Below, one piece after another: positions 1 to 44,376 of a stretch of 64,000 nucleotides of DNA (position 1 is the first letter of the stretch; each line of letters begins with the position of its first letter). Both the position numbers and the translations under genes were made by a program. Location of the stretch: contig JAHIPI010000027.1 of NCBI GenBank assembly GCA_018894435.1, forward strand, positions 1,552 to 65,551. The letters are read 5' to 3'. The notes below the pieces were generated by a model. That model searched no databases, was not told the origin of the DNA, and saw nothing but the letters and a program-made list of their open reading frames with translations. The stretch is from Candidatus Omnitrophota bacterium. GTDB lineage: Bacteria; Omnitrophota; Gorgyraeia; JAHIPI01.

Positions 1-3000
1 AGTCTCAGTTCCTGAAAGCTGCAATGAATTGTAAGTAGTGGTAGTAACATTGATGTTGCCTGCTGAGTTAGTAGCAGAGTATTTAACTGTAGAGGTGCCG
101 GGAGTTAAGGTGCCGCTAACAGTTAAGACTGTAGCAGTAGCGCCTGCATTGGCTAAGGTAAGCGTATAGCTTCCTGCTCCAAGATCTAAGATATCAGCCG
201 AACCAACTGTTCCATCGATCGTCAGCGTATCCACAGTCATTGAAGAAGCAAGAGTGAGTTTATTGTTAGTAGCCGGAGCTACAGTATCAGTCTTATTGAT
301 TGAGACTACGCCGATATTTTGTGGAGTGGCAGTTGAATCAGTATATGTAGCTGCGGTTGTGCCATCGAATGTCCAGGTGCCTGTGCCTTTGGTAACAGCT
401 CCTGCGGAAGCTATTGAGACATTGCCTGCGGTATTGACATTAGGATTATTGGTCAAAAGATTTAGGGTGCCATCAGTAATCGTCAGTGTCCCATTTACAT
501 CCAAAGCGCCTGATATAATCGCCTGGTCATAAGTCGCCTGGGTATTATTGAGCGTCAGGTTATAGAATGCCTGTCCGGCAGTAGTGATTGTCTGATGAGC
601 TGAAGCATTGCCGGTGAGAGTAACTGTGCTTGTGCCTGCAGTAAATGTTCCTGAGTTAGTCCAGTTGCCGCTTGCTGTAATAGGGGCGTATGAGCTTGTC
701 GCATCGAGGGTGCCATTTATTGTAATGTCTACGGCAGTAAGGCCATACTCTGTGCTAGTGGGTTTCACATCCAATGTGGCGTTAGAATTGATTGTTAAAT
801 TGCCTGTCATGGCATAGCTGCCTATAAGGTCGCCGGTCAGATTATATGTTGTAGCGCCTGTTGGAGTAAGTGTCAGGTTATTGTAAGCGACTCTTGCGAT
901 ATTAGTGGCTGTAGCAGTGCCGGTATAGATTACTGTAGAGCCTGTGCCTTTATTGAAGGTGCCTGTAGCTACAAGAGGAGTACCTGTGCCTGTGATGGTT
1001 AATATATATGAGGTTGTCCCAAGATTAAATGTTGTGCCGGTACCGATACTTAAAGAGGTTAGCTTTAAGTTACCTATCATCGTGGTAGTGCCTGTACCAC
1101 TAGTTACTACTACGCCTATGTCATTAGTAGTGGCGTTAGCATCTGATATATTCTGGGTAGCGCCGTCCAATGTGAGAGCCTGGCCGCCTGTGGCCTTGGT
1201 GAATGTGGAGCCATCCGCTATCGTGAAGTTACCTGATACATTAAGAGTCGAGGTGGCCTGAGTGAATGTGCCTGAATTAAGCGCGAAGGCTCCGTTAACG
1301 TCTACTGAGCCGGCCGCACCGCTTGTAAACGTCCCTCCCCCTATCGTTAACCCACCGTTAAAGGTCTGAAGGGCTGTTGAGGCCGAGTATGTGCCGCCGT
1401 TAATAGATGTAAGGCCTGTTACCGTGACGGTCATGGTGTTGGCATCGAAGATGCCAACTGAATTGATGAAGGCGCCTGTTACTGAAAGAGCATCCGCTAA
1501 CTGCAGCGTGCCGGCTCCGGAGTGAGTGAGGTTGTAGAAGGATGAATTCGTTGTACCGGAAGTTAACGTCTGGGTTCCGCTAGCTTTATTAAAAATAACC
1601 GTAGAATCATCGGCGATGAACTGTGACGGCGCTGTGCCTGTGCCGTAGTTAAGCCAGTTACCACCGACGGTGATGGTTGATGTGCGGCCAGCGCCAACGT
1701 TACGCGTGGCATCGAGTTTTCTTAAACCTGTCTCATCATTAAAACCAATTGTTAAATTTCCGCCAACCGTAAGGTTATAACCATCGGTTTTCCAGGTAAT
1801 TACGTTTCCAGCCGAATAAGCGGTTATAGATAAACTGTTTGTACCATTAAGCGTAACATTGCCTGTTTGAGTTATTGTTACGTTACCCCCTGTGACGATC
1901 CCACAATTATAGCCATTAGTTAGTGTGGGTATTGTAGCACTTGCAACAAAAGATAACATAGTAAGAGTAAGACTCGAGTTGACATCGAAACTGAGCGGAT
2001 TAGCCCCTTTGAGATATATCCATTTGCTACCTGTCAACGTACCGGAACCAATCGTCAATATCGACCCAATGGCAATATGGCTACCCAAAGTCGTCGTATT
2101 ACCGCTCTGTCCGGCGGTCAGGTTATTGAAGCCGTTAGCCGAATAACCTGATAAATTATTATACGTCAGCGTATTCACCCCATTCAGCACTAAGGTAGCA
2201 CTGTTGTATTGAGTAGATGCCACTGTCCCATCCGCTGTGAATGTGCCGTTGCCGTTAATGGTAATAGTTGATGAATTGGCGTTGAAGCGTGAGGTAATAG
2301 ATGACTGAACGAAGTTGCCGGCGAGCGTAATACCGTAAGAGTTGGCTAATGTAGTATCAAGTATCGCTCCTGCATCAATAGTCAGATTACCGGTTAAGGC
2401 ATTGCCAACTGTTAAGTTACCGGTCAAGTCATAAGTCTCAGTTCCCGAAAGTTGCAATGAATTGTAAGTAGTAGTGGTAACATTGATGTTGCCAGCTGAG
2501 TTAGTAGCAGAGTACTTGACTGTAGAGGTTCCGGGAGTTAAGGTACCACTTACTGTTAAGACTGTAGCAGTGGCGCCTGCATTGGCTAAGGTAAGTGTAT
2601 AGCCGCCAGCTCCTAAGTCCAGGGTATCAGCTGAACCGGCAGTGCCATCAATAGTTAAAGTATCTACTGTCATGGATGAGGCAAGAGTGAGCTTATTGTT
2701 TGTGGCTGGGGCTACTGTATCTGTCTTATTGATGGAGACTATTCCGATATTCTGAGGAGTAGCTGTTGAGTCTGTGTATGTAGCAACGGTGATGCCGTCA
2801 AAGGTAACTGCTCCGCCCTTGGTAAAGGTGGTGCCTAGATCCAGCTGGAAGTTGCCGGCATAGTTCTGGGTTTGACTGTTGGCATTAAATGTTCCTGACT
2901 GTAGCCTGAAGTTGCCATTCACATCCAAGGCATCTATTAATACCGCACTGCCAGCGGATTTATTGATGGTCAAGCCATAGAATGACTGACTATTCGATGT

Positions 3001-6000
3001 GATATTCTGGGTTCCTGTGCCGTTTAGAATAACCGTGGAGCTGCCGGGGGTGACGGTGGCGCGGGTAAAATCAACATTTCCGCCGATACTGACATTGCTC
3101 GTTGTGCCAAAATCGAAATAGCCGTAGGTATAACCGCTGCTGCCGTCCACATTAACATTGCCGGTAATGCTGTGCGTGCCGGTCTTAAACAGAATTTTTC
3201 CTCGATAGCCTTCCGGATAAGGAGCGTAACTTATTCCTAAATCCAGATTACCATTAACGGTTAGATTAAAGCCGTTTGTATCTAAAACTTGCGCTTCTGC
3301 TTCTGTATCAGCTAAGAAATCGCCGGCAATCCATAAAGTTCCGGTTGTCCAGTTGCCTGTCATTTGAATAGTCTTTGTATTAGCATACGCTATCTTGACC
3401 TGAACAGAAGTGCTAAATGCTTTTTGTGTTAAAGGGGTAGCGCTGGGTACAATGTCTATTCCACCGGTGGTTATACTCGAACCAGCGCCCATATCTAAAA
3501 AGTCATTCGCATTCGGATAAATAGCAATAGTACTCGCACCGGTCAAGACTGCGCTAGTTCCGAGAACAAGCTTCTTAGTGAAAACTCCGCCGGTTCTCGT
3601 GGAAGTAACACTGTTGCCAATTTGCAATACAGCAATAATATTGCCAGAATTTGGATTGGAGATATTCCCGTTTGCTCCCTGGATCCACGTACCTGTTGAT
3701 GTAAGGATACCCGAAGTATTGGCAATGCTGATATTGCCATTTACAGTTACGGTTTGGCCGCCATCGATCAGTGTGCCATCGGTAACAGTAATACCTGTGC
3801 ACGTTAACGCATCCACCAGCGTCCATCCGCCCGCGGCATTGCTTGAGTCAAATACGACAGTATTAAAAGTAGAGCCGCCGGTCGTAATAGTTTTTCCTAC
3901 TGCGCTAGCGGTAAAGGTAACTGTTTCGCTGGCGCCTTTGGTATATACACCTCTTGTCCCAGAATCCCAATTGCCGCCGACATTAATCGGCGTATTATTG
4001 ACTGAATTATTCAGGGTAATGGTTACGGCGCCGACCGTTGTATGGGTTATGGTAAGATTACCACCCACAGTAAGAGTGCCAATGCCTAAAACACCTGTAG
4101 CGGAGCCGGCATTGCTATTCGTTATGGTTAAATTGCCGCCGTAGGTTGTGGGGGTTATGGGCGCGGTTGTAGCGCCTTGTCCAATCAGATATTCAAATAA
4201 GCTCACAGAAATCGTGCCATTGTTGACAATGTTAGATGAGGCATTGCTAACATCTTTAGAAAACCTGCCCGCGCCGCTTAAGGTGCTTGCATTATTGATG
4301 GTTAAGGTGCCAGTCTGACCTACGTATAATCTCTTACCTGTCCCGATTTCCAGTTCTCCTGTAATATTCAGGGCATAAGAGGGATAGGCGGAAGTGCCTG
4401 TATTCCAGCTCACTTTGTTAATTCCGGAATTTATGGTTAATTTGTAGAATTTAACGTCCCAGTAACTCCCGCTTGTAGGAGTAGTAATGGTTTTGTTTCC
4501 CCCTGTGGCTGTCATAATTACTTCGCTTGTGCCATAAGTAAACGTCCCTGCCGAAGAATCCCAGTTGCCGCCGACATTAATTAGCGTGGCGCCGCTGCAG
4601 GTAAGCGTAACACCGGAGTTAATCGTGAGATTGCCTGAAACGCCGATAGTATAGACACCCACAGTATAGGTAGCGGCAGTGGTGGTCTTAGCTAATGTCA
4701 AAGCGCCGGCTGAAGTAACTGCCTGAAGCGTTGATGATACGCCTTCGCTGGTTAAGGTAATGTCACCGCTGGTAACTGTAGAAATCGTCCCTGAAGACTG
4801 GATGAGCGCTCCTGCGCCGGTATTAATCTGCAGCGCTCCGCTAGTGACTGTGAGGTTCCCGGCAATGGTGAGCGTATTGCCATTACTATTAATATATGCG
4901 CCGCCGGAGCCTGCAACTACGCCAGTGAGCGCTGTAGAAGGAGCAATATATAAATTCGCTACGTCTGTGCCTAATCCGCCAGTCGCGCCGCCGGCTGTCA
5001 ATTTAAGATTTGCTGCCTTGATAATATTGGAAGCGCCGCCGGAATGGGTGATGTTTCCTGCTGCTGCCGCTAGCGTTAGGTCGCCAAGAGTTTTATAAAG
5101 TAGGTTGTCGCCGGTATTTTCCAAAACTCCGCCATAAGTAGCTGTGTTGGAAACAATGGCTAATTCTTCAGTCGTGCCGGATTCAACCGCGGTCTTAATA
5201 TCCAAATTGCCCGAGGCTTTAGAAATGTGCGAAGCGCCAAGGGGCGTATTAGTTTCTACATAGACGCCTGTTGCAATTGGGATTGGCGTAGAGGCAGTGC
5301 CGACACTACCGGAGGTAGATTTTAGGACTATCGCGTCAGCGCTAAAGCTGGCTGAATTTGAAGTTATATTATTTGTTGCTGTAACATAGATAAAGTTGGC
5401 TCCGGAAAATGCGGAAATAGACCCCAGCGAAATATCATAACCCTTGATTGTTATATTGGAAGCCGTTGTGGTTGAAATTGTTCCGGAAGTATGGGTGAAA
5501 TTTCCTGAGCCATTGGCATCGTAATCAGCTTGGATAGCTATAGAGCTGCCGGTTGAGCTAACATTTGCCTGGATATCAATATCGCCATTGGAATAGAGAA
5601 AAATATTCCCTGATCTGGAGAACGCGCCTGTAACTGTTAATTCTACCGGCGCGCCGGCAGTATCGCCAGTAGCATAAATAGTAGTGGTAGCTCCTCCGGA
5701 TAAGCTGGCATTCTGGGTGGAGCCGCCGGTAGTAATAGTATTACCATTAATGATAAAGGTATTGGCGCCTTGCAGGGTTAGAGGGTTTCCCGTGCCGGCA
5801 GTTAAAGTCACTAAGCCTGCAGCGGTAAAAGTGAGGTTGCCTGAGCCATTGGCATTATAATCAGCTTGGATATAAAGGTAACTTTCGGTTGAGCCAACAT
5901 TAGCCTGGATATCAATATCACCTTTGGAAAAGAGATAAACTACCCCTGATTTGGAAATCGCGCCTGTAACTGTCAACTCTACCGGTGCGCCGGCAGTATC

Positions 6001-9000
6001 ACCAGTAGCATAAATGTTAAGGCTATTTCCTCCGGATAAGCTGGCATTCTGGGTTGAGCCAGCAGTAGTAATAGTATTGCCATTAACGCTAAAGGTATTG
6101 GCGCCTTGCAGATAATGAATGTTTGACGCGCCGGCAGTTAAAGTCACTGTAGCTGCAGCAGTAAAAGTGAGATTGCCTGAGCCATTGGCATCATAATCAG
6201 CTTGGATATAAAGGTAATTCCCTGTTGAGCCAACATCAGCCTGTATATCAATATCACCTCTGGACCAAAGAGTAACTATGCCGCTCTTAGAGATCGCTCC
6301 TGTGACTGTCAGCTCTACTGGCGCGCCGGCAGTATCGCCAGTAGTATAGATTTGTAAGCTATTTCCTCCGGATAAGCTGGCATTCTGGGTTGAGCCAGCA
6401 GTAGTAATAGTATTGCCATTGATGCTAAAGGTATTGGCGCCTTGCAGATAATGAGTGCTTGACGCGCCGGCGGTTAAAGTCACTGTAGCTGCGGCAGTAA
6501 AAGTGAGGTTGCCTGAGCCATTGGCATCTATATCAGCTTGGACATAAAGTGAGCTTCCCGTTGAGCTAACATTTGCTTGTATATCAATATCTCCTTTGGA
6601 ATAGAGATAAACTGTCCCTGATTTGGAGACCGCTCCTGTAACTGTCAGCTCTACTGGCGCGCCAACAGTATCGCCAGTGGCATAAATAGTAAGGCTATTT
6701 CCTCCGGATAAGCTGGCATTCTGGGTGGAGCCGCCGGTAGTAATAGTATTGCCATTAACGCTAAAGGTATTGGCGCCTTGCAGATAATGAAGGCTTGATG
6801 CGCCGGCAGTTAAAGTCACTGTAGCTGCGGCAGTAAAAGTGAGGTTGCCTGAGCCATTGGCATCATAATCAGCTTGGATATACAGGGTATCTCCCGTTGA
6901 GCCAACATCAGCCTGTATATCTATATCGCCATAGGCTCGAAGATTAACCGCGCCAGTCTTAGAGATCGCTCCTGTAACTGTTAATTCTACTGGCGCGCCG
7001 GCGGTATCGCCAGTAGCAGTAATGGTAAGGCCGCCACTTCCTCCGGATAAGCTGGCATTCTGGGTGGAGCCAGCAGTAGTAATAGTATTGCCATTAACGC
7101 TAAAGGTATTCGCGCCTTGCAGGACATGAGCGCTCGATGCTTCGGCAGTTAAAGTCACTATGCCGACAGCAGTAAAAGTGAGATTGCCTGAGCCGTTGGC
7201 ATCATAGTCAGCGTAGATACCTACAGAGCTGCCGGTTGCGCTAACATCAGCCTGTATATCAATATCACCTTTGGAAAAGAGATAAACTGCCCCCGATTTG
7301 GAAATTGTGCCTGTAACTGTCAACTCTATTGGTGCGCCGGCAGTATCGCCAGTAGCATAAATGTTAAGGCTATTTCCTCCGGATAAGCTGGCATTCTGGG
7401 TGGAGCCACCGGTAGTAATAGTATTACCATTAACGCTAAAGGTATTGGCGCCCCACAGTTTATGAACGCTTGATGCGCCGGCAGTTAAAGTCACTAAACC
7501 TGCAGCAGTAAAAGTGAGGTTGCCTGAGCCATTGAGATCGTAATCAGCTTGGATATAAAGGTAATTCCCTGTTGAGCCAACATCAGCCTTTATATCAATA
7601 TTTCCATTTGCCCATAATCTTATAAGGCCGGCGCAGGAAATCGTATCATTGACTGTAATGTCCCCGACTATAGCCGAAATAATTGATTTGTAAACACTTA
7701 ATGAGCCTGCAGAAGTAATCGCATCTAACGTGGCATTTGCCGCGTAGATGATGATGTTTGCTGTGCCGGTAGTGGTAATTTGTGTGGCAGAGCCCTGGAT
7801 AAACGAACCATTGCCATCACGGTCAGAATCCGCGTTAAAAGTAATCGTGCCGGAGGCGGAAACCGAGGCATTGACATATATATCATTAGTAGCGGTGAAG
7901 GTCAGCGCGCCGGCATAGGCAGTAATCGGAGAATCAATCCAGATATTTACCGGGTCAAAATCAAGGTGGCTGGCAGAATAGGTGCCGCCAATGTCAAGGC
8001 TGTCAGCCTTAAAGATAATCGTGCCGTAGTCAGGGTTGGCAGCCATAATTCCGCGGGCGTAAATTGTCCCATTTAATGCTTTTAATACTATATCGCCGGT
8101 GGGCGTAGATAAAGTGCCGTTTAAGAATAAATTTTGGGTGGTTGAGATGAGGGTGAGGTTGTTGCTGGAAATAGTTACACCCCTAGCGACATAGATAGAC
8201 CCATCTTGCGCTTCGAGGATAAGATTTGTGCTCTTTAAGTATTGAATTGCGAAATCGTCGCCGGGAGGACCCCTGACGGTTACGCCTTCGCCCATGATAG
8301 AAGATAAAGCTATTACTATATCTTCATTGGTTCTCACCACCTTGAGCGTGCCGGCTGCGGTTATTACGGGTTCCTCGCTATGACCGATATTGTTGCCTAT
8401 AAGGGTGAGTGTTGAGGCAGGTATTATGGCCTGTCCTGAATCTGTCACTCCACCATTTTGGGCCTCCAGGGTAAGAGACTTAAGCGAACAATAGGTCACT
8501 GCTCCGAAACCTTCAACCGGTCCGACAATCGTAACCTGGTCTCCTTCTAACTCTATAACTGCTACTATGTCAATGTCACTTATATTCCTATATATATGGG
8601 TGACATTCGCGTTCACTATGAAAGGCTCTTCAATACTGCCTATTTGAATTCCTATCAGCTTAACCATATCACCGGGAACTGCTGTATCCGATATGTTAGT
8701 AACTTTCCCGTTTGGCGCTTCCAGCGTAATACTGCCGGCAGTCGCATACCTTAATATATCACCGTGCTCTGTGGTCATGGTGGTTATGCCGGCATCTGAG
8801 GTTACTGTGTTAATCTCTATGTCGCCTGCTGTATGGATGTAATGGGGCAGGCCCGCTATCTGAATCGGTGCAACACGGCTTCCTATTAATATATGGCCCT
8901 CGGCCGCCTCCATATCGTACAGGGTAAGAAGAGGAGCATCGACCATCAGGTCGCCTTCAAGAACGGCCAGCTTTGTCCCTTCGATCTGCCTCACCTCGCC

Positions 9001-10305
9001 GCCGAACGCGGTAATATCGAGGTCGCCCGATGAAGAGACGTTAGCCACTGTCACGCTTCCGGTTCCGGAATAGGCAGTGGTGCCTGACCTTATGGTTATA
9101 TCCCCACCTCCCTGAGTAGATATGGCAGCATCGGCGAGTTGGGTGAAATCGCCTCCGTTTAGGTTATCATCATCTGCTATGAATACAAGGTCTGCCCCGT
9201 TTAATCCATATACATTGCCTGTAATATTGATATTGGCAGGCGTCGCTACGGTGAGGGACGCGGTTGCTTCCATTGTGCCTGCTAATGTAGTATCTAACAA
9301 TGAGCTATATGAGATGTTCGCGCCCGTAACTTCGGCGCTTGCCAGTTGTACTATTTCGCCTTTCGTCGCCTCTATAGTGATATCACCTGAGGCGTACATG
9401 GTACCGCTATTTTCTATATCGCCCTCAGGCGCCAGGAGCGCAATGGTTCCGTCCGCATTCTCCACGATCTTAGCGGCCAGTATCATGCCTTCGTTGTTAA
9501 CGGCATTAGCAAAGGCGTCTCTGGCAGCTGAGGCAGCAATAATGACTTTGCCTGAATCGGCCTGGATTGTCCCTGTATTTATTATGGCAGCTTCCTCATT
9601 GGTGGGGTTAGAGGTAACAGGTTCATCTATAGCCACCTGTATGAGGCGGTTATTTTCGAAACTGATGGTAACCTTGTTCCCGCTTGCCAGTGCCACCGTT
9701 CCCTGATCGGCCTGCAGCATCCCTTCATTTTTGATAGTCTGGGCTAAAAGGGCAATGAAGCCGCCATCGTTCACAGCTATTACTGCCTGGTTTACAATCT
9801 GGCCATCTTTGTTCAGTTTCTGGAAAACATATCTGCCGTTTCTGAAATCTTCTGTATCAATGTTCATTGTTGATGCAACAAGCGATCCAACATTGATGTT
9901 TGCGCTGGGGTCAAATACTATGCCGTTCGGGTTGACTATAAAGATATTGCCATTGGCATAAAGATAGCCAGCAATTACTGATTGCTGGCCGCCTATGACA
10001 TTGTTAAGGACGTTTGAGTTTGCTGATGTCTGATAATAATAGACGCTCTCGTTTGCTGTGATATTTAAAGACTGCCAATTTAAAACTGCATTATCTGAGG
10101 GCCTTACGGTTACACTATTGGGGATCGAATAATCGATTTCGGCTGTGCCTTCAACTACCTGGCATCCTTCAGGAAGTGCGTGTACTGTGTTTACGCTAAA
10201 TAATAAAAAAAGAGCAATCAAACCCGCAGCCCACATTATGCCGCTTGTGGCGCGTGTCTTTCTTGCCCTTATAATCTCGTTTTTACTGTGGCTTAACGTT
10301 CTCAT
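1..10305 (-). CDS. Giant TpsA / filamentous-haemagglutinin-like secreted repeat exoprotein; N-terminal signal peptide plus TPS (haemagglutination activity) domain; 3' end lies beyond the window start (at least 3435 codons in window)
   Basis: Reverse-complement translation from ATG at 10305 gives MRTLSHSKNEIIRARKTRATSGIMWAAGLIALFLLFSVNTVHA... then ...GNIFIVNPNGIVFDPSANINVGSLVAST (NPNGI hallmark of the TPS domain). No complete minus-strand ORF is listed for 1..10305, consistent with one open frame with no in-frame stop before the window edge. The plus-strand V/P-rich ORFs are antisense shadows. Confidence 0.8.
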   Translation of the reverse strand, partial: MRTLSHSKNEIIRARKTRATSGIMWAAGLIALFLLFSVNTVHALPEGCQVVEGTAEIDYSIPNSVTVRPSDNAVLNWQSLNITANESVYYYQTSANSNVLNNVIGGQQSVIAGYLYANGNIFIVNPNGIVFDPSANINVGSLVASTMNIDTEDFRNGRYVFQKLNKDGQIVNQAVIAVNDGGFIALLAQTIKNEGMLQADQGTVALASGNKVTISFENNRLIQVAIDEPVTSNPTNEEAAIINTGTIQADSGKVIIAASAARDAFANAVNNEGMILAAKIVENADGTIALLAPEGDIENSGTMYASGDITIEATKGEIVQLASAEVTGANISYSSLLDTTLAGTMEATASLTVATPANINITGNVYGLNGADLVFIADDDNLNGGDFTQLADAAISTQGGGDITIRSGTTAYSGTGSVTVANVSSSGDLDITAFGGEVRQIEGTKLAVLEGDLMVDAPLLTLYDMEAAEGHILIGSRVAPIQIAGLPHYIHTAGDIEINTVTSDAGITTMTTEHGDILRYATAGSITLEAPNGKVTNISDTAVPGDMVKLIGIQIGSIEEPFIVNANVTHIYRNISDIDIVAVIELEGDQVTIVGPVEGFGAVTYCSLKSLTLEAQNGGVTDSGQAIIPASTLTLIGNNIGHSEEPVITAAGTLKVVRTNEDIVIALSSIMGEGVTVRGPPGDDFAIQYLKSTNLILEAQDGSIYVARGVTISSNNLTLISTTQNLFLNGTLSTPTGDIVLKALNGTIYARGIMAANPDYGTIIFKADSLDIGGTYSASHLDFDPVNIWIDSPITAYAGALTFTATNDIYVNASVSASGTITFNADSDRDGNGSFIQGSATQITTTGTANIIIYAANATLDAITSAGSLSVYKSIISAIVGDITVNDTISCAGLIRLWANGNIDIKADVGSTGNYLYIQADYDLNGSGNLTFTAAGLVTLTAGASSVHKLWGANTFSVNGNTITTGGSTQNASLSGGNSLNIYATGDTAGAPIELTVTGTISKSGAVYLFSKGDIDIQADVSATGSSVGIYADYDANGSGNLTFTAVGIVTLTAEASSAHVLQGANTFSVNGNTITTAGSTQNASLSGGSGGLTITATGDTAGAPVELTVTGAISKTGAVNLRAYGDIDIQADVGSTGDTLYIQADYDANGSGNLTFTAAATVTLTAGASSLHYLQGANTFSVNGNTITTGGSTQNASLSGGNSLTIYATGDTVGAPVELTVTGAVSKSGTVYLYSKGDIDIQANVSSTGSSLYVQADIDANGSGNLTFTAAATVTLTAGASSTHYLQGANTFSINGNTITTAGSTQNASLSGGNSLQIYTTGDTAGAPVELTVTGAISKSGIVTLWSRGDIDIQADVGSTGNYLYIQADYDANGSGNLTFTAAATVTLTAGASNIHYLQGANTFSVNGNTITTAGSTQNASLSGGNSLNIYATGDTAGAPVELTVTGAISKSGVVYLFSKGDIDIQANVGSTESYLYIQADYNANGSGNLTFTAAGLVTLTAGTGNPLTLQGANTFIINGNTITTGGSTQNASLSGGATTTIYATGDTAGAPVELTVTGAFSRSGNIFLYSNGDIDIQANVSSTGSSIAIQADYDANGSGNFTHTSGTISTTTASNITIKGYDISLGSISAFSGANFIYVTATNNITSNSASFSADAIVLKSTSGSVGTASTPIPIATGVYVETNTPLGASHISKASGNLDIKTAVESGTTEELAIVSNTATYGGVLENTGDNLLYKTLGDLTLAAAAGNITHSGGASNIIKAANLKLTAGGATGGLGTDVANLYIAPSTALTGVVAGSGGAYINSNGNTLTIAGNLTVTSGALQINTGAGALIQSSGTISTVTSGDITLTSEGVSSTLQAVTSAGALTLAKTTTAATYTVGVYTIGVSGNLTINSGVTLTCSGATLINVGGNWDSSAGTFTYGTSEVIMTATGGNKTITTPTSGSYWDVKFYKLTINSGINKVSWNTGTSAYPSYALNITGELEIGTGKRLYVGQTGTLTINNASTLSGAGRFSKDVSNASSNIVNNGTISVSLFEYLIGQGATTAPITPTTYGGNLTITNSNAGSATGVLGIGTLTVGGNLTITHTTVGAVTITLNNSVNNTPINVGGNWDSGTRGVYTKGASETVTFTASAVGKTITTGGSTFNTVVFDSSNAAGGWTLVDALTCTGITVTDGTLIDGGQTVTVNGNISIANTSGILTSTGTWIQGANGNISNPNSGNIIAVLQIGNSVTSTRTGGVFTKKLVLGTSAVLTGASTIAIYPNANDFLDMGAGSSITTGGIDIVPSATPLTQKAFSTSVQVKIAYANTKTIQMTGNWTTGTLWIAGDFLADTEAEAQVLDTNGFNLTVNGNLDLGISYAPYPEGYRGKILFKTGTHSITGNVNVDGSSGYTYGYFDFGTTSNVSIGGNVDFTRATVTPGSSTVILNGTGTQNITSNSQSFYGLTINKSAGSAVLIDALDVNGNFRLQSGTFNANSQTQNYAGNFQLDLGTTFTKGGAVTFDGITVATYTDSTATPQNIGIVSINKTDTVAPATNNKLTLASSMTVDTLTIDGTAGSADTLDLGAGGYTLTLANAGATATVLTVSGTLTPGTSTVKYSATNSAGNINVTTTTYNSLQLSGTETYDLTGNLTVGNALTGNLTIDAGAILDTTLANSYGITLAGNFVQSSITSRFNANSSTITINGNGTFTADGTVASTQYNSATLVLNGVNTLTYNNLSGYSANGFNNLTAGQSGNTTTLGSHIAIGSILTIGSGTLTGSKWIYLKGANPLSFDVNSSLTLTMLSFVASATIPTLTNGYNCGIVTGGNVTITQTGNVTLNGTNSLSITAYSAGNVITWKTDGYNLTVGGNLTIGFNDETGLRKLDATRNVGAGRTSTITVGGNWLNYGTGTAPSQFIADDSTVIFNKASGTQTLTSGTTNSSFYNLTHSGAGTLQLADALSVTGAFINSVGIFDANTMTVTVTGLTSINGGTYSASTALQTFNGGLTIGGGTFTSGAAGSVDVNGAFALNSGTFTQATSTLNVSGNFTIADGSTFTKATGGQALTLDGATQNISDANATTNDIGVVVTSGTGTTTMIGNLKLTSLSIGTGTTFNLGTTSYILTITGTGTPLVATGTFNKGTGSTVIYTGTATATNIARVAYNNLTLTPTGATTYNLTGDLIGSYAMTGNLTINSNATLDVKPTSTEYGLTAVDITINGTLDATSSYAPITASGNWTNSGTFTAGTSTVTLTGNASAHQTITTAGQAFYNLTLNNTQATYDQAIISGALDVNGTLTITDGTLNLLTNNPNVNTAGNVSIASAGAVTKGTGTWTFDGTTAATYTDSTATPQNIGVVSINKTDTVAPATNNKLTLASSMTVDTLTIDGTVGSADILDLGAGSYTLTLANAGATATVLTVSGTLTPGTSTVKYSATNSAGNINVTTTTYNSLQLSGTET
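2440..2820 (-). repeat. Long-range intragenic duplication: 2440..2820 is about 88% identical to 1..380 (2.44-kb period), with weaker similarity continuing beyond
   Basis: Direct comparison of agtctcagttcctgaaagctgcaatgaattgtaagtag... at position 1 with agtctcagttcccgaaagttgcaatgaattgtaagtag... at position 2440. Confidence 0.75.
5505..7524 (-). repeat. Tandem array of 336-bp (112-aa) near-identical repeats inside the tpsA-like gene, about 6 full copies plus degenerate copies on both sides (roughly 5170..7860)
   Basis: The motif cctgagccattggcat recurs at 5505, 5841, 6177, 6513, 6849, 7188 and 7524; the period is 336 bp (one step of 339). A repeat translates on the minus strand as DANGSGNLTFTAAATVTLTAGASSTHYLQGANTFSINGNTITTAGSTQNASLSGGNSLQIYTTGDTAGAPVELTVTG... 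Confidence 0.8.
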
Positions 10306-10471
10306 TGCAAATCCTATTTTCGGCAACTGACAGCCATGACCAGAATGGCTTTAGGCTCTTAGTTTTGCGTCGCCAGCTTTTGCTGGTTTTGCCTTTTCGC
10401 TATAGAATTTAAAGAGAACCCGAATTACTTTGAGTGGTTTGGTTCGTCTTTACCCTTTTAGCCCTACTAAG

Positions 10472-18880: not shown

Positions 18881-19924
18881 TTATAACAATTTAAGCGAAC
18901 TTATCATCCCGCTGACAGCTTCAAAGACATCGTCCGTCGTGATCATCTTCAGGCATTTGAAACCGTTCTCGCAATTATGCGCAAGGCAAACCTTGCAGCC
19001 GGCGTCTTTATGAAGAAACATGTCCTTTTCGCCGGTAGGCCCCCATCTTTTCGGACTGAGGCCGGGCTCGTTCCTTCCGAATATAACAACACAGGGTGTG
19101 CCCGCAGCCGACGCTATATGGACCGGGCCTGAATCATTTGAAATAAATAAGGCGCACTTCTTAAAGAGCGCGGCAAGCTCGCCCACGGACGTCTTGCCGG
19201 AAAGGTCCAGCACCTCAGTTTTTAGGCCTTTTAAAAGCGCTTGGGCGTCTTTTGAATCGGCCGGCCCGGATATCAATACCGCCTGAAAATTATACCGTTC
19301 TTTCAGCCGGTCTATCAACGCCGCAAAACGCTCCGCCGGCCACCTCTTTGAGGGGCAGCTTGCGCCGGGATGCACAGCTATTAAGGGAACGGCACCGTTA
19401 TAGCCCTCGCGCGCCAGCTTTATATTTATCGAATTTTTGGCCGATTCTTTTACGGGCACATACGGCCTCTTATCCTTTGCCGTAATACCTATGTACTTTA
19501 ATATATCTAAAGTATAATCCAATTCATGCTTTTCTCCAAGAAATTTTTTATCTTTTATCCTTTTTGTCAAAAGACCCGCCATCTTCCTGTCTAGGCCGAT
19601 TCTTGAGGGGATGCCGGCTGAAAATGCTACTATATGCGCGCGGTTGGTCGGATGAAGTATAAGCGCTGTATCAAAGTGTTTTTTTCTTAAAGCCAGCCCG
19701 AAGAGGAGCGTCGCAAGAAAACTTTTATGCGCGCCGTCTTTATCATATATAATTACCTCATTGAGGTAAGGGTTACCTTCCACTATATCCCGGGCATAAG
19801 GCCGTACCATAACCGCAATATAAGCGGAAGGATAGGCATCCCTCACCGCCTTTATGGCCGGCGTAGAAAGCACCACATCGCCTATGCGGTCAGTCCGTAT
19901 TAGTAGTATGCGTTTTGGGTTCAT
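18881..19924 (-). CDS. Glycosyltransferase family 9 (ADP-heptose:LPS heptosyltransferase, WaaC/WaaF-like)
   Basis: RILLIRTDRIGDVVLSTPAIKAVRDAYPSAYIAVMV... Confidence 0.8.
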   Translation of the reverse strand: MNPKRILLIRTDRIGDVVLSTPAIKAVRDAYPSAYIAVMVRPYARDIVEGNPYLNEVIIYDKDGAHKSFLATLLFGLALRKKHFDTALILHPTNRAHIVAFSAGIPSRIGLDRKMAGLLTKRIKDKKFLGEKHELDYTLDILKYIGITAKDKRPYVPVKESAKNSINIKLAREGYNGAVPLIAVHPGASCPSKRWPAERFAALIDRLKERYNFQAVLISGPADSKDAQALLKGLKTEVLDLSGKTSVGELAALFKKCALFISNDSGPVHIASAAGTPCVVIFGRNEPGLSPKRWGPTGEKDMFLHKDAGCKVCLAHNCENGFKCLKMITTDDVFEAVSGMISSLKLL

Positions 19925-19930
19925 ATTTTT

Positions 19931-19962
19931 AGCTATCAGCTATCAGCTCTCAGCTATCAGCT
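19931..19962. repeat. Family-B heptamer-repeat arm (AGCTATC)n, left inverted repeat of the four-helix-bundle cassette
   Basis: agctatcagctatcagctctcagctatcagct. Encodes the last residues (ADS) and the stop of the four-helix-bundle gene. Confidence 0.7.
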
Positions 19963-20315
19963 TTTAATTTCTTTTTTAAACCAGATATCATTGCCGAAAT
20001 CTCATCGGATTTTTCAATAAGACAGCTTATGTCTCTTTCATTAAGATAATTTAACCGCTTAGCTATTTCTAGCCCACACATTACTTCATAAGAAGAACGT
20101 AATGAAATGCTCAAAAATCTATTAAACTCATTATCTGAACCAGCTCCGCTACCTTCGGCTATATTTAATGCTATTGACGTAGCTGCCCTTCTTAATTGAC
20201 TCGTTAATCCATATATCTCATTCGTCGGAAATTTATTCGTAATCTTATAAATATCTTCTATAAAACTCATTGCTTTATTCCAAATTGTCAGTTTTCTGAA
20301 TTTTTGTTCTTTCAT
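19950..20315 (-). CDS. Four-helix-bundle protein (23S rRNA intervening-sequence protein family, TIGR02436-like)
   Basis: 121 aa. ...LTSQLRRAATSIALNIAEGSG...EFNRFLSISLRSSYEVMCGLEIAKRLNYL is typical of the family. Confidence 0.7.
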   Translation of the reverse strand: MKEQKFRKLTIWNKAMSFIEDIYKITNKFPTNEIYGLTSQLRRAATSIALNIAEGSGAGSDNEFNRFLSISLRSSYEVMCGLEIAKRLNYLNERDISCLIEKSDEISAMISGLKKKLKADS

Positions 20316-20331
20316 ATCTAATTCCTATTAT

Positions 20332-20364
20332 AGCTGATGACTGACGACTGAAAGCTGACAGCTC
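20332..20364. repeat. Family-B heptamer-repeat arm, right inverted repeat of the four-helix-bundle cassette
   Basis: agctgatgactgacgactgaaagctgacagctc; its reverse complement is agctgtcagctttcagtcgtcagtcatcagct. Confidence 0.7.
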
Positions 20365-21334
20365 ACTTACCAAGCATTTCTTTCGCAACCTCAAACACTT
20401 CCTCCGCAGTGATCTCTTTCATGCATTCGTGCTCAAACTCGCACTGCGCCTTTTCGCAAGGAACGCAGTGTATCTTCTTTCTTATAACGCGGTCGTCTTT
20501 GCCTCTCGGGCCGTAGAGCCGCGGGTCCGTCGGGCCGAATATCGCCAATACTTTTGTTCCGGCGGCAACTCCTAAATGCATGGGAGCGCTGTCATTCGTT
20601 ATAAGCAGGTCGCTCTTTTTTAAAAGTGCGGCAAGCTGGCAAAGGCTCGTTTCGCCGGTAAGGTCAGTTACCTCTTTATTTGCGGCGGCTATTATATCCT
20701 TTACCGCCCGCCTGTCCGCCTTGTCGCCTGCCAATATCACATCGGCGTCGATTTCGTCAATAAGACGCCCTACAAGCTCCGCATATCCTTTTTTCGTCCA
20801 TCTTTTTATCTCGCTTTTCGCGCCCGGCGCTATGGCAACAACGGGTTTTTTTGAGTCGCTCTTTTTTATTATCTTATCTATAAAATCAATGTCTTCCGTG
20901 GGTATATGTATAAAAAAAGGCGCGTCCTTTACTTCGAGCCCTATTGAACTCAGTTTTGCGAGGTGCTGCTCCTTTTTATGCCTGACGGCCCTTGGGACAT
21001 TTTGAATGGGGCTCGTCCTGTATTTTGCGCCCAGAAGAAACGGGAAAAGCGAATTTCTCATATCTACTATAAGGTCATAACGGACCTTTCTCAATTTCTG
21101 TATGAGGCGGCGTTTCTCTTTAAGGGATGTGTGCTTATTGTAGATTATCAGCTTAAATACAGCCGGATGTTTTTTGAATAAGTCCTCACCGTTCGGGCCG
21201 ACCATCACGTCGAGTCTAGCGCTTGGAAAATGGCCGCAAAGGACCGACATGACGGGTGTCGTCAGCACTATATCGCCTATATTGCTCAGTGTGATAAATA
21301 GCATGCGTTTTACTTTGGATTTGTCTATTTTCAT
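20363..21334 (-). CDS. Glycosyltransferase family 9 (heptosyltransferase-like)
   Basis: MLFITLSNIGDIVLTTPVMSVLCGHFPSARLDVMV... Confidence 0.8.
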   Translation of the reverse strand: MKIDKSKVKRMLFITLSNIGDIVLTTPVMSVLCGHFPSARLDVMVGPNGEDLFKKHPAVFKLIIYNKHTSLKEKRRLIQKLRKVRYDLIVDMRNSLFPFLLGAKYRTSPIQNVPRAVRHKKEQHLAKLSSIGLEVKDAPFFIHIPTEDIDFIDKIIKKSDSKKPVVAIAPGAKSEIKRWTKKGYAELVGRLIDEIDADVILAGDKADRRAVKDIIAAANKEVTDLTGETSLCQLAALLKKSDLLITNDSAPMHLGVAAGTKVLAIFGPTDPRLYGPRGKDDRVIRKKIHCVPCEKAQCEFEHECMKEITAEEVFEVAKEMLGK

Positions 21335-21391: not shown

Positions 21392-23532
21392 AGATACCCT
21401 TCTTCCTCAATCACCTTCATAACATCTTCCGGTGTAACGGCAGCCATGCACCTATTCTCGCGGCAGGTCATATCATAACAAGGAACTGAACAACCAATAT
21501 CTTTCTGTATCACCGTATAATTGTCTCCGCCGTAAGGGCCGGTTATGGCCGGATCCGTCGGCCCGAATATCGCTATCGTGCCGGTATGCATGCTTACAGA
21601 TATATGCATAGGCCCGGAATCCCCGGAGATAACGAGTTTGGCTCTTTCAAATATAGCCGCCATCTCCCTTATCGCAGTCCTTCCGCATAAAGATACCGTC
21701 TTATGGCGCATCGCTTTAGATATTTCTTCGGCCAGTTTCTCGTCTTTTCTGCCTCCGCTTATCACTATCTTTACACCGTATTTCTCCCGAAGCCGGTCGC
21801 CCAATAAGGAGAAATGCTCTACGGGCCACCTCTTAGGATCCCAGTTACCGCCCGGATTCAACACCACAAAACGCTCATTTGTGTTTATGCCCAGGGACTG
21901 TAAGAGCGCTTCGACTTTTTTTCTGTCAATATCCGTTATAAAAAACTCGTAATTCTTTTTAGAGGTATCCGCCCCTGCCGCTTCGGCCAATTTGAGGAAA
22001 TATTCCACTTTATGCATCCCGCACCCGCGCGCGGGCGCTGGATCGGATTGCTTCAGCTTCCCGGTCAGGATGCATCCTCTCCCTTTCGTGTCATAGCCAA
22101 TGCGCTCTTTTATCCCCGCCAAAAATGTAATGAATGCGCGTGTAAACGAACGGTGAAGTATAAAAGCTGTGTCAAAATGCTCTTTTCGCAGCTTCATTAT
22201 AAATCGGATCTTCCCCGCAATACCTCTTTCGCTCGCGTCTTCATCGAATATTATTAGTTCGTTAATACGCGAATTCGCCTCCAGCATCTCTTTCGTGCGC
22301 GGCACGACGACACAGGCGATGTAACTTTCAGGGTATGCCTCGCGGATAGCTCTTATGAACGGCGTGGAAAATATAACGTCGCCGAGCCAGTTCACGTTGA
22401 TGATTAATATTTTCTTCCGGGTTTTGGGTTTAGGGTTTATCACCTTTTTATATAAATTCTCGACTTTATCCGCCATCTTATCCAGCGTAAAGTCTCTCAA
22501 CACCTCTTCCCTTGCTTTTTCGCCAAGTGCGGACATCGTCTTCTTATCATTTAATAAATCTACGATCTTCCGGGCAAGGTCTTCGGCGTCGCCCACATTA
22601 AAAAGGATGCCGTTTTTCTTATCCTTTATAACATTCTCTATGCCGCCGACTCGACTCGCGATGCACGGTTTCGCCGAAGCCATCGCTTCCAAAAGCGAAA
22701 GGCCAAGACCTTCCTTCACCGAGGGTAAAATGAAAATATCCATAACTGAAAGCGGCTTTTTTGTGTCTTTTGCGCTTTTCGAAAATACTACATTGTCGCC
22801 GATGCCGAGTGTATCCGCAATTTTCCGCAGCCTCTTCTCGTCGGGGCCGTCACCGACCATCAATACCTTGAGAGACGGCACGCTGTCCGATACCCTGCTT
22901 GCCGCTTTAAGCAGTACCTCCTGGCCTTTCACAGGCGAAAGCCTGCCTATTGTGCCTATCACAGGGCCTTGGGCTTGGAACCCCAGTTCTTTTTTCTCCT
23001 TTATTTTATCGGCGTCAGCTATATCCCTGCGAAAATATTCGGTATCTATGCCGGTATATATAAGTTCCACTCTATCTTCCGGTAATTTGAAGTCATCCAT
23101 GAGATGCTGCTTTACCGCTTCGCTTATCGCTATCACTTTCACGCCCCAGGCTCCGTACAAGATCCTTCCCAGGCGGGTTTTAAAATAACCGTGACAAGTA
23201 GTAATATAAGGTACGCCCGTAGCGCGTGAGGTAAGGGCGGCCACTACCGCCGTAACCCTTGTATGCGCGTGTATTAATTCTATATTTTCCCGCTTCACTA
23301 TATCTTTTACGGCAAAAAATGTTTTGATTATCTTCGGGCTCAGTTCCGATTTAGTTTTTATATCCAGGTGAAAATGGTTTATGCCGCTTTTGGAAAGTTC
23401 CCCTTCCAGATCACCGCCAGAAGAAGCCACGAAAATAACGTGATTTCTCGCCTTCATGGCCTTAGCCAGATTGGCGACATATACGCCTATCCCGCCGATA
23501 TTAATGTGTGTTGTTAAGTGCAATATGCGCAT
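21364..23532 (-). CDS. Bifunctional glycosyltransferase: N-terminal GT4 (GT-B, EX7E) fused to a C-terminal GT9 heptosyltransferase-like domain
   Basis: N-terminus MRILHLTTHINIGGIGVYVANL...EGLGLSLLEAMASAKPCIAS. C-terminus KILIINVNWLGDVIFSTPFIRAIREAYPESYIACVV. Confidence 0.75.
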   Translation of the reverse strand: MRILHLTTHINIGGIGVYVANLAKAMKARNHVIFVASSGGDLEGELSKSGINHFHLDIKTKSELSPKIIKTFFAVKDIVKRENIELIHAHTRVTAVVAALTSRATGVPYITTCHGYFKTRLGRILYGAWGVKVIAISEAVKQHLMDDFKLPEDRVELIYTGIDTEYFRRDIADADKIKEKKELGFQAQGPVIGTIGRLSPVKGQEVLLKAASRVSDSVPSLKVLMVGDGPDEKRLRKIADTLGIGDNVVFSKSAKDTKKPLSVMDIFILPSVKEGLGLSLLEAMASAKPCIASRVGGIENVIKDKKNGILFNVGDAEDLARKIVDLLNDKKTMSALGEKAREEVLRDFTLDKMADKVENLYKKVINPKPKTRKKILIINVNWLGDVIFSTPFIRAIREAYPESYIACVVVPRTKEMLEANSRINELIIFDEDASERGIAGKIRFIMKLRKEHFDTAFILHRSFTRAFITFLAGIKERIGYDTKGRGCILTGKLKQSDPAPARGCGMHKVEYFLKLAEAAGADTSKKNYEFFITDIDRKKVEALLQSLGINTNERFVVLNPGGNWDPKRWPVEHFSLLGDRLREKYGVKIVISGGRKDEKLAEEISKAMRHKTVSLCGRTAIREMAAIFERAKLVISGDSGPMHISVSMHTGTIAIFGPTDPAITGPYGGDNYTVIQKDIGCSVPCYDMTCRENRCMAAVTPEDVMKVIEEEGYLGSDPKKRS

Positions 23533-25710: not shown

Positions 25711-25713
25711 TTT

Positions 25714-25808
25714 CAGCTTTCAGCTTTCAGCTCTCAGCTTTCAGCTGCCAATTTACCTGACCACAATCAGGTTTATAGCTGATAGCTGACGGCTGACGAC
25801 TGAAAGCT
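25714..25808. repeat. Family-B heptamer palindrome: (CAGCTTT)4CAGCTG, a 29-bp spacer that itself contains a hairpin, then the inverted heptamer arm; an 'empty' copy of the cassette ends
   Basis: cagctttcagctttcagctctcagctttcagctg ccaatttacctgaccacaatcaggtttat agctgatagctgacggctgacgactgaaagct. Occupies the whole intergenic gap. Confidence 0.75.
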
Positions 25809-25811
25809 TAA

Positions 25812-33028: not shown

Positions 33029-33048
33029 TAGGTTTCCTTTACGTGCTT

Positions 33049-33088
33049 GTCATTGCGGGCCCCGCCATGGCGGGGCGAAGCAATCTCA
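33049..33088 (+). repeat. Family-C palindromic element, plus orientation
   Basis: gtcattgcgggccccgccatggcggggcgaagcaatctc. Lies in the 157-bp hairpin-rich dprA-topA intergenic region. Confidence 0.55.
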
Positions 33089-33185
33089 TTCGAGATCCCT
33101 CGTATGCTCCTATTCGTCGCATCCTCGGGATGAAATTCGGCCTGATGACTTACATTCGCTACGCTCTGTAAGTCATGGCCTCATT

Positions 33186-39244: not shown

Positions 39245-39262
39245 TTATTTGCTCCTCCATCT

Positions 39263-39323
39263 AGCTTTCAGCTTTCAGTCTTCAGCTTTCAGCTGAGAGC
39301 TGACGGCTGATAGCTGATAGCTC
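39263..39323. repeat. Family-B heptamer palindrome, an 'empty' cassette copy filling the leuA-ilvC gap
   Basis: agctttcagctttcagtcttcagctttcagct g agagctgacggctgatagctgatagctc. Confidence 0.75.
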
Positions 39324-39324
39324 T

Positions 39325-44206: not shown

Positions 44207-44221
44207 AACATTCCCCCAATG

Positions 44222-44241
44222 AGTCCCGCCATGGCGGGACG
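44222..44241. repeat. Family-C core hairpin GTCCCGCC-ATGG-GGCGGGAC in the ilvD leader, 16 bp upstream of the start codon
   Basis: agtcccgccatggcgggacg; an alternative pairing gcggga/tcccgc lies upstream on the transcript. Confidence 0.5.
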
Positions 44242-44335
44242 AATTGATCCCGCAGCTTACGCAGAAAATTTTGCAGAAATTTTCAAGTGCTTAAGCAAGG
44301 GACTATCTTATTCATTTTACATTATAAGACCCATT

Positions 44336-44364
44336 ATTATACCCATGGGGAGGAAATTTGTCAA
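44336..44364 (-). promoter_or_regulatory. Consensus sigma70 promoter (TTGACA-17-TATAAT on the minus strand) driving the ilvD-ilvB-ilvH-ilvC-leuA operon
   Basis: Reverse complement of 44336..44364 is ttgaca aatttcctccccatggg tataat: a perfect -35 and -10 with a 17-nt spacer. The TSS would be about 123 nt upstream of ilvD. Confidence 0.55.
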
Positions 44365-44376
44365 CAAAATTAGGAT

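Follow-up and report, generated by a model that had tools for sequence, protein, structure and literature searches.

Here we report on a 64,000-nt stretch of DNA from a Candidatus Omnitrophota bacterium (contig JAHIPI010000027.1 of assembly GCA_018894435.1, positions 1,552 to 65,551; this whole stretch is called the window), in which a gene for a small four-helix-bundle protein is enclosed by inverted arrays of tandem heptamers. We interpret the window as holding one copy with an open reading frame (ORF) and two copies without an ORF of a hairpin element, and this element as the counterpart, outside ribosomal RNA, of the ORF-containing intervening sequences of 23S rRNA genes. We give this interpretation a probability of about one half.

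The ORF-bearing copy, or cassette (19931-20364), lies between two genes of glycosyltransferase family 9 (GT9). Its 5' arm consists of five imperfect heptamers (20363-20332) that directly follow the TGA stop codon (20365-20363) of the upstream GT9 gene. Its 3' arm takes in the end of the enclosed gene, four codons plus the stop, and 6 nt after the arm the downstream GT9 gene begins with ATG. A first-pass annotation, made from the sequence alone, had described inverted heptamer arms with exactly one gene between them, had noted that the arms supply the last codons and stop of this gene, and had placed its product in the four-helix-bundle family of 23S rRNA intervening sequences. We found the same: there are AGCTNTC arrays at 20332-20363 and 19931-19962, the sole ORF between the arms is a 121-aa minus-strand gene (19950..20315), the 3' arm overlaps K-A-D-S-stop, and the protein matches PF05635 (E=3e-37) and TIGR02436 (E=1e-36). 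The arms are 32 nt long each, are 78% complementary and are separated by 369 nt, and Tandem Repeats Finder gives a period of 7 with 4.6 copies at 19931-19962. The arms pair with each other in the minimum-free-energy fold of a 461-nt transcript segment (z = -5.8 against shuffles), and neither forms a separate hairpin of its own. Between 5' arm and start codon, the spacer (20316..20331, minus strand) has a Shine-Dalgarno-like AGGA and a TATAAT hexamer. The latter is perfect and sits at the junction of arm and spacer (20317-20334, minus strand; CAGCTATAATAGG), about 12 nt upstream of the cargo ATG; a promoter scan made no call at this TATAAT, and a -35 hexamer with a suitable fit is absent.

The encoded protein scores 127.5 bits against PF05635 (cut-off 33.8), with residues 7-112 aligned to profile positions 1-106, and 125.2 bits against TIGR02436 (cut-off 24). 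Its closest relative of solved structure is the pentameric XCC0516 (PDB 2gsc, E=3e-20). Residues E33, Y35, Q40, R42, R43, S47, N51, E54, S74 and E77 are conserved across 88 sequences; G36, Q40, R43, S47, N51 and E54 are at least 93% conserved in this set, which includes the window protein, and correspond to the family motif G-x2-R-x3-S-x3-N-x2-E (PMC3936711). The protein is basic, with an isoelectric point of 9.1 (family median 9.0). Searches of Pfam and NCBIfam with the cargo returned four-helix-bundle families only, with neither a HUH/Y1 transposase domain nor a recognised catalytic domain, and its scores for the Avd families were under the cut-offs (bAvd, 21.4 bits vs 40; NCBIfam DivGenRetAVD, 20.7 vs 80). 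The four-helix-bundle family comprises about 19,000 clusters at 50% identity. Homologues on plasmids come almost exclusively from Nostoc, Calothrix, Anabaena and relatives, and homologues were absent from phage records.

The same heptamer recurs in the window. Matches to CAGCTNTCAGCT with at most one mismatch number 18, compared with 0.77 expected, and 0 of 100 shuffles reached 18. Outside the cassette, they fall within two gap-filling hairpins and one stretch of 1.5 units (Table 1). The first hairpin fills the whole gap between two co-directional genes (25711-25811), and after the second comes a GGAGG, the ribosome-binding site of the following gene. Both are real by their folding scores, but they are not the perfect palindromes that the first-pass annotation had reported at 25714..25808 and 39263..39323: they are imperfect, with mismatches about 7 nt apart. 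What had been listed as a repeat fragment at 61344 has no stable fold; it may be a remnant, is not significant alone, and we do not use it as evidence. An ORF remnant was not recognisable in the loop of the empty hairpin at 25715-25808, where apparent 'LKAxS*' readings follow inevitably from the repeat sequence. All of these sites were assigned period 7 by Tandem Repeats Finder, and every array lies in a gap within a run of genes. The only other period-7 array in the window, three copies of GGGTTTA inside the coding region of a gene for a 722-aa glycosyltransferase (22415-22439), is probably due to chance.

Table 1. The cassette, its neighbouring genes and the related heptamer sites of the window
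Feature	Position	Strand	Sequence or context	Basis
5' arm	20332..20363	minus	AGCTGTC AGCTTTC AGTCGTC AGTCATC AGCTAT (mRNA sense)	Inverted repeat; pairs with 3' arm in fold
Spacer between 5' arm and cargo ATG, 16 nt	20316..20331	minus	..TATAATAGGAATTAGAT ATG	Direct sequence reading
Cargo ORF, 121 aa	19950..20315	minus		Matches to PF05635, TIGR02436 and PDB 2gsc
3' arm	19931..19962	minus	AAAGCTG ATAGCTG AGAGCTG ATAGCTG ATAGCT	Inverted repeat; Tandem Repeats Finder; fold
Upstream neighbour, GT9 heptosyltransferase-like	20363..21334	minus	Stop codon abuts 5' arm	
Downstream neighbour, GT9 heptosyltransferase II-like	18881..19924	minus	ATG without Shine-Dalgarno motif	
ORF-less hairpin, ~35-nt arms, ~28-nt loop	25715..25808	minus		-52.2 kcal/mol; z = -9.5 vs shuffles
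ORF-less hairpin, practically loopless	39257..39323	minus	Gap 39245-39324	z = -4.0 vs shuffles
About 1.5 heptamer units in a 28-nt gap	61344..61355	minus	AAGCTTTCAGCT	One-mismatch match; z = -0.84

The association of gene and arms is widespread. From an alignment of homologues we fetched 80 loci of about 18 phyla, with one genome per species; these include Bacteroidota, Acidobacteriota, Planctomycetota, Chloroflexota, Patescibacteria, Omnitrophota, Proteobacteria and others, as well as one archaeon. When the 110 nt upstream of the gene were compared with the 110 nt downstream, inverted complementarity with a score of at least 26 was present at 84% of the loci, compared with 0.4% for shuffled downstream flanks, 5.8% for pairs from different loci and 20% for direct matches within the same locus. 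The first-pass annotation had named two findings that would speak against it, other copies of the four-helix-bundle gene without arms, and palindromes that are ordinary terminators restricted to the window. Neither holds: other copies do have arms, across phyla, the hairpins have no U-tract, and such arrays occur in other metagenome contigs. A period-7 array lies within 120 nt of a gene end at 65 of the 80 loci, and at both ends at 36. Near the gene these arrays reach a density of 6.7 per kb, compared with 0.39 per kb in the remainder of the loci; counted by flanks, they are present at 44% of those of four-helix-bundle genes compared with 6.8% of those of other genes in these loci, a roughly 6-fold difference. 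Periods of 5, 6, 8 and 9 were not enriched near the gene in the 80 loci. The arms are typically 3-5.5 units long. As in the window, contact or overlap between 3' arm and stop codon is seen in 39% of the downstream arrays that were detected. Neighbouring genes are mostly co-oriented with the gene (63:7 upstream, 59:10 downstream), at median gaps of 67 and 46 nt. Paralogues 2 kb apart in one locus can bear different heptamers, each complementary to itself (L013, L014, L056). As for other cargo, 26 ORFs without a match to a four-helix-bundle hidden Markov model were bracketed by arrays, none of them between complementary arms; the majority are either ordinary genes, for example those for thiolase and aminotransferase, or ORFs that are probably spurious, situated between two different elements.

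Cassettes are found in diverse operons. The groES-groEL junction holds one in four Flavobacterium species and in Mariniflexile (L042, L048, L055, L062, L075, around 3900-4520); there, a highly conserved operon is interrupted, and further heptamer hairpins stand on either side of the cassette. Other insertion sites are upstream of thiolase in several Bacteroidota, between T2SS-E and T2SS-F in Omnitrophota, and between cas6 and cas4 on an Anabaena plasmid; four-helix-bundle genes inside cas operons have been remarked on earlier (PMC3936711). Heptamer arms also flank the four-helix-bundle genes on plasmids of Nostoc, Anabaena and Calothrix, for example seven copies of GGGAGTA and five of TCCCTAC in Nostoc edaphicum. 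In the latter (L211), the gene is antisense between the beta and alpha genes of ribonucleotide reductase and has full heptamer arms on both sides. On a Calothrix plasmid (L209), the gene is antisense between toxin secretion genes, and the 3' array alone is evident. The arrays of a Crocinitomicaceae locus (L010, 3900-4450; ..ATGGAGC/ATGGAGT..) are direct rather than inverted, an exception to the hairpin rule. At two loci (L216 and L218, 2460-2500), the 5' arm abuts the ATG of the four-helix-bundle gene (..cagccgtcagctATG) and leaves no room for a Shine-Dalgarno motif. Unless such a stem is opened or cut, it is questionable how the protein could be translated, or whether it is translated at all.

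The sequence of the unit depends on the lineage (TAGTGGG, TAAGCTN, GAGCTAC, CCAGAGG, GGGACGA, TTAGATA, TCAGCTN), and a single rule of handedness holds: the 5' arm reads N-A-G-Y-n-n-n and the 3' arm n-n-n-R-C-T-N. Among consensus units of 5' arms, 44 of 48 contain AG and 12 of 48 contain CT, with AGT found 20 times and ACT once; CT is present in 43 of the 53 consensus units of 3' arms. Within arrays, AG is the most conserved part (0.91-0.97), usually followed by a pyrimidine, and the last three positions are variable (0.77-0.80). As a consequence of this pattern, mismatches in the stem recur every 7 nt, with an excess of 1.56-fold at lag 7 and 1.46-fold at lag 14; A-A is the commonest mismatch. 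Empty hairpins in the homologous loci have the same handedness, 9 to 0. Because an inverted repeat reads alike from both strands, the rule describes the handedness of the hairpin and not its relation to the strand of the gene. Among published heptamers, TAACTGA is the 3'-arm form of TCAGTTA, the unit at one of our loci (L058), and fits the AG rule, and the Coxiella unit GACAGAT (CAG-ATGA) appears to fit it on our own reading of the published sequence; GGGAATC of Xanthomonas is outside it. Two candidate explanations of these patterns were rejected. Stop codons in all three frames are not the main driver of period 7 and of the AG/CT rule: a stop is present in the units of 51-58% of arms and in 33-46% of random heptamers, without a clear asymmetry between strands. 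A code that relates protein to heptamer was likewise discarded, as protein identity tracks the unit only among close relatives.

Comparison of the orthologous GT9-GT9 junction in four relatives (L083-L086) indicates how the cassette changes with time. In the closest (L083; downstream GT9 protein 94% identical), the insert is absent and the two genes overlap by ATGA without any spacer. In L084 (84%), the junction holds an unrelated palindrome, gtcattgcgagg...cctcgcaatgac (2900-3000), part of which is read as the C terminus of the upstream gene. L085 (77%) has an empty hairpin built from a different heptamer (TAGACGA...TCGTCCG). In L086 (71%), the 5' arm is followed by the last ~40 nt of the four-helix-bundle ORF and by the 3' arm; by our own count from the alignment, 38 of 41 nt of the ORF remnant are identical to the window, and L086 is an internal-deletion derivative of the window cassette. 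Homologues that are 69-75% identical to the cargo occur in four unrelated operons, always with arms of TCAGC/TCAGT type: between DUF72 and QRPTase genes, among response-regulator genes, between DAGK and epimerase genes, and between T2SS-E and T2SS-F. A few pairs of loci from different phyla combine a shared unit with unusually similar proteins (L070/L082, 61%; L016/L018, 64%; baseline 44%). The states of the orthologous site and the homologues in unrelated operons together mean that the cassette is gained or lost with precision at its sites, keeps its arms when it moves and leaves ORF-less hairpins behind. The cassette therefore behaves as an invasive element that decays into empty hairpins.

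Large numbers of arrays have no such gene beside them. When metagenome contigs were scanned for four perfect AGCTNTC units, at least 120 contigs matched, with 127 array sites among the matches listed, of which 65 are solo arrays, 33 are hairpins with a loop of at most 60 nt, 25 are pairs 61-250 nt apart and 4 are pairs 251-700 nt apart. Among arrays away from the gene in the 80 loci, 38% share the unit of the arms (at most one mismatch), compared with 5% for units of other loci. Arrays as a population are thus much more numerous than the filled copies among them. Nostoc, Calothrix and Anabaena are said to be the genera of the original descriptions of STRR, one of the intergenic heptamer repeats. 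Calothrix and Nostoc are named for heptamer repeats in PMC4692102, and the function and binding factor of STRR, TAACTGA and GGGAATC/GGGGATT arrays are described as unknown (PMC4679880, PMC4692102). For the TAACTGA arrays, MacGregor observed in 2015 that they end near start codons and proposed an RNA-binding regulator yet to be found (PMC4679880).

On these grounds, we propose the following model. The element carries in its loop the gene for a basic, pentamer-forming PF05635 protein and in its stem four to five imperfect tandem heptamers in inverted orientation. It enters the short gaps that separate co-directional genes within operons, occupies an orthologous site in some relatives and not in others, takes its arms along, and shrinks by internal deletion to empty hairpins, of which there are far more than filled copies. 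So much is shown here; the rest of the model is inferred. In the polycistronic transcript the arms would pair, and the stem may be a substrate of RNase III, by analogy with Coxiella, where this enzyme cuts the 23S rRNA intervening sequence at the start of the first repeat (PMC4990558). Such a cut would loop out or excise the cargo mRNA and thereby limit harm to the host operon. The encoded pentamer may bind the repeat stem or array with one AG heptamer, or one periodic mismatch, per protomer; the basic character of the protein and its invariant Q, R, S, N and E residues are in keeping with this. The parallel is the Avd pentamer, in which all five protomers contact an RNA stem-loop and flipped-out bases occupy the crevices between protomers; a long-range RNA duplex in that system includes the 3' codons of avd (bioRxiv 10.1101/2023.10.23.563531). 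If it binds in this way, the protein would regulate its own synthesis and might also act in trans on arrays of its heptamer family that are empty or solo. Two possibilities for the route to a new site are gene conversion, by way of the arms, between filled and empty sites, and reverse transcription of the excised hairpin.

Several of our observations weigh against this model. No target-site duplication is present at the five junctions compared (window, L003, L213, L216, L086), and the window and the empty L083 site share only a possible TGA/ATGA coincidence. Neither a transposase nor a recombinase was found in the neighbourhoods examined, namely those of the window, its relatives and the 69-75% homologues, whole genomes not having been searched. 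Neither result points to a mechanism of mobility. In Flavobacterium, the groES-groEL cassette stays at one site across genera, and fixed-site cassettes of this kind look more domesticated than selfish. Mismatches of G-U type, which would be expected in excess if the sense RNA were under selection to pair, number 70 compared with 93 A-C, so that an RNA-level role is argued by analogy only. The 10-14% of cassettes that are antisense to their neighbours, as in Nostoc edaphicum, do not agree with a view confined to RNA, and co-transcription with the host operon is therefore not obligatory. A simple specificity code is not apparent either: cross-phylum pairs that share a unit have 44.7% protein identity compared with a baseline of 43.6%. 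Finally, many filled cassettes were expected from the metagenome scan, but the matches listed were almost all solo arrays and short hairpins, and only 3 of the 127 array sites among them adjoin a four-helix-bundle ORF.

Some of these points would suit a domesticated regulator, a possible if somewhat doubtful alternative. Here the protein would be a ring-shaped, TRAP-like pentamer that serves the host in post-transcriptional control, with arrays upstream of start codons as its operators; it would be autoregulated and not selfish. Operators of this kind could be recognised in arrays that end a few nucleotides before start codons without a Shine-Dalgarno motif, as TAACTGA arrays do (PMC4679880), and the typical 3-5.5 units would suit a pentameric protein, as would AG invariant at 7-nt spacing. 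Positions kept across genera (groES-groEL; upstream of thiolase) and the excess of other arrays in a locus that share the unit of the arms (38% vs 5%) point the same way. A host regulator would not readily account for presence, absence and a deletion remnant at one orthologous site, for close homologues in unrelated operons, or for insertions in the rRNA genes of other species (PMC4990558; bioRxiv 10.1101/2024.02.27.582315), and its protein and unit would be expected to covary, which they do not. We regard as unlikely a passive association, in which REP-like hairpins arise by replication slippage or palindrome dynamics and ORFs land or survive there, for example through gene conversion, without any functional tie. 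Passages of PMC4679880 and PMC4692102 put the over-representation of heptamer simple sequence repeats in many bacteria down to polymerase slippage; among the matches listed, empty and solo arrays vastly outnumber filled ones, unrelated palindrome families share the gaps of this genome, and a protein-to-unit code is absent. Yet mere coincidence would not place arrays ~6-fold more often at the flanks of four-helix-bundle genes than at those of other genes (44% vs 6.8%), give paralogues of one locus different self-complementary heptamers, make gene and arms travel together or fuse the 3' arm to the last codons of the ORF. At least one empty hairpin (L086) is demonstrably a deleted cassette, and the same anatomy exists within rRNA.

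The first-pass annotation had seen in the cassette a mobile unit like a miniature inverted-repeat transposable element (MITE). Mobility gains from the absence of the insert in L083, the deleted copy in L086 and the homologues in unrelated operons; the lack of target-site duplications at five junctions and of a transposase in the neighbourhoods examined leaves the MITE as an analogy. A true MITE with cargo, its arms being terminal inverted repeats recognised by a transposase encoded elsewhere, seems to us very improbable. Inverted termini, small size, multiple copies, derivatives without the ORF and presence/absence polymorphism are all as such an element would have them. Solo one-sided arrays are common, however, and the arms vary in repeat number and sequence, with the AG core alone conserved across phyla, unlike transposase-specific ends; the junctions and neighbourhoods described above speak against it as well. 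That ordinary intrinsic terminators or attenuators happen to lie on both sides of the gene could be entertained in view of stable, GC-containing stems at intergenic positions. A U-tract is missing after each of the hairpins, and only 3-20 nt separate them from the start of the next gene on the same strand, so these are not terminators; a terminator scan found nothing at the arms, and the two arms pair together and not as hairpins of their own. For practical purposes, the terminator reading is refuted.

The preferred reading, a hairpin element related to 23S rRNA intervening sequences, would connect three separate puzzles that are decades old: the intervening sequences with an ORF, the orphan four-helix-bundle family and the excess of intergenic heptanucleotides (STRR, TAACTGA, GGGAATC). 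ORF-bearing intervening sequences of 23S rRNA were reportedly described in 1993; for proteins of the orphan family annotated as "four helix bundle protein", structures have been solved and, to our knowledge, no function is known. An AG core every 7 nt, a fixed handedness, four to five units and a pentameric protein suggest that the three are facets of one system. Its grammar is simple and testable and offers an experimental handle through binding and processing assays. It also accounts for four-helix-bundle genes within conserved operons such as groES-groEL, cas and secretion operons. For annotation, it matters that the arms supply stop codons and abut start codons, and they probably break metagenome assemblies. 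A bolder proposal, which we advance tentatively and consider rather doubtful, is that PF05635 pentamers are the missing readers of heptamer arrays, with one N-A-G-Y-n-n-n unit or one flipped-out base per protomer. Gene and arms would then form the autonomous unit of an element, or of a regulatory network, that is widespread; STRR, TAACTGA and comparable heptamer arrays would be its ORF-less descendants and the intervening sequence its rRNA-resident form. A further possibility under this proposal is that the pentamer recruits reverse transcriptase in the manner of Avd, and that hairpin RNA released by RNase III is copied into DNA at new sites.

Other features of the window were also noted. The genes around the cassette form a co-directional run on the minus strand (~11.3 kb to the window end), and its neighbourhood encodes CorA and PfkB besides glycosyltransferases. 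A second, unrelated family of intergenic palindromes (..CATAACGAGGGTCTGACCCC..) occupies at least seven operon gaps (14153, 15139, 21335, 45517, 47696, 48348, 49113), and hairpins of the CCCGCCATGGCGGG / GCAATGAC type are present at 33029-33185 and 44207-44376; several hairpin families have thus spread into the spacers of this genome. A c-di-GMP-I riboswitch (68 bits, 10319-10403, minus strand) is located directly upstream of a giant minus-strand ORF (1-10305) that encodes more than 3,430 aa and extends beyond the start of the window. A signal peptide, an FhaB/TPS-like N terminus and a 336-nt tandem repeat of 6.2 copies (5504-7601) are features of this ORF, which together with the riboswitch looks like a c-di-GMP-controlled gene for a giant adhesin.

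In comparison with known systems, the element shares with MITEs its small size, inverted ends, a majority of ORF-less over ORF-bearing copies and insertion polymorphism; it differs from them by ends that are variable tandem arrays and by the lack, at the junctions and in the neighbourhoods examined, of target-site duplications and of a cognate transposase. It resembles the REP/REPIN-RAYT systems as a short palindrome in operon spacers with many copies, in one gene bracketed by inverted repeat copies, and in the matching of different repeat families to different gene copies within one genome. RAYT, however, is a HUH/Y1 transposase and REP units are not tandem heptamers, whereas the cassette protein is a small four-helix bundle. 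The fold of the cargo is homologous to that of Avd, the pentameric barrel of diversity-generating retroelements, but the cargo scores far below the Avd cut-offs, and neither a reverse transcriptase nor template and variable repeats are adjacent; the element is thus no member of that class of retroelements. STRR, TAACTGA (Beggiatoaceae, Cyanobacteria, Bacteroidetes) and GGGAATC (Xanthomonas) are, like the arms, intergenic repeats of period 7, usually in 2-6 copies, with lineage-specific units and often a few nucleotides before starts with weak ribosome-binding sites (PMC4679880, PMC4692102). The published repeats are mostly direct solo arrays described without mention of a four-helix-bundle gene; those reported here are inverted pairs around such a gene, or hairpins.

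The first-pass annotation had been unaware of any description of the association of heptamer arms and four-helix-bundle gene. The link is, in part, already on record. In a full-text literature search that left subscription journals mostly uncovered, so that a prior description is possible, we found no general link between PF05635 and heptamers. Heptamers in an RNase III-cut stem are known from Coxiella, and this single-species observation is the nearest prior report: the 23S rRNA intervening sequence of Coxiella contains an S23p ORF, a 28-bp terminal stem and tandem GACAGAT heptamers, which lie on the 5' side of the stem region and differ in copy number between strains (PMC4990558). ORF-bearing intervening sequences are regarded as selfish, with mobility described as unknown (PMC4990558). 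They lie inside the 23S rRNA gene, in helix 25 or 45, whereas the cassette is flanked by GT9 genes and the window contains no match to rRNA. The heptamer grammar and the many ORF-less copies are features of the cassette that are absent from the description of intervening sequences, and removal from the transcript by RNase III without religation, shown for Coxiella and others, would apply to the cassette by analogy. In their basic plan the two agree: like the cassette, the 23S intervening sequences of Leptospira and Coxiella burnetii have terminal inverted repeats that pair into a long stem, and the ORF for an S23p (PF05635) protein in the loop.

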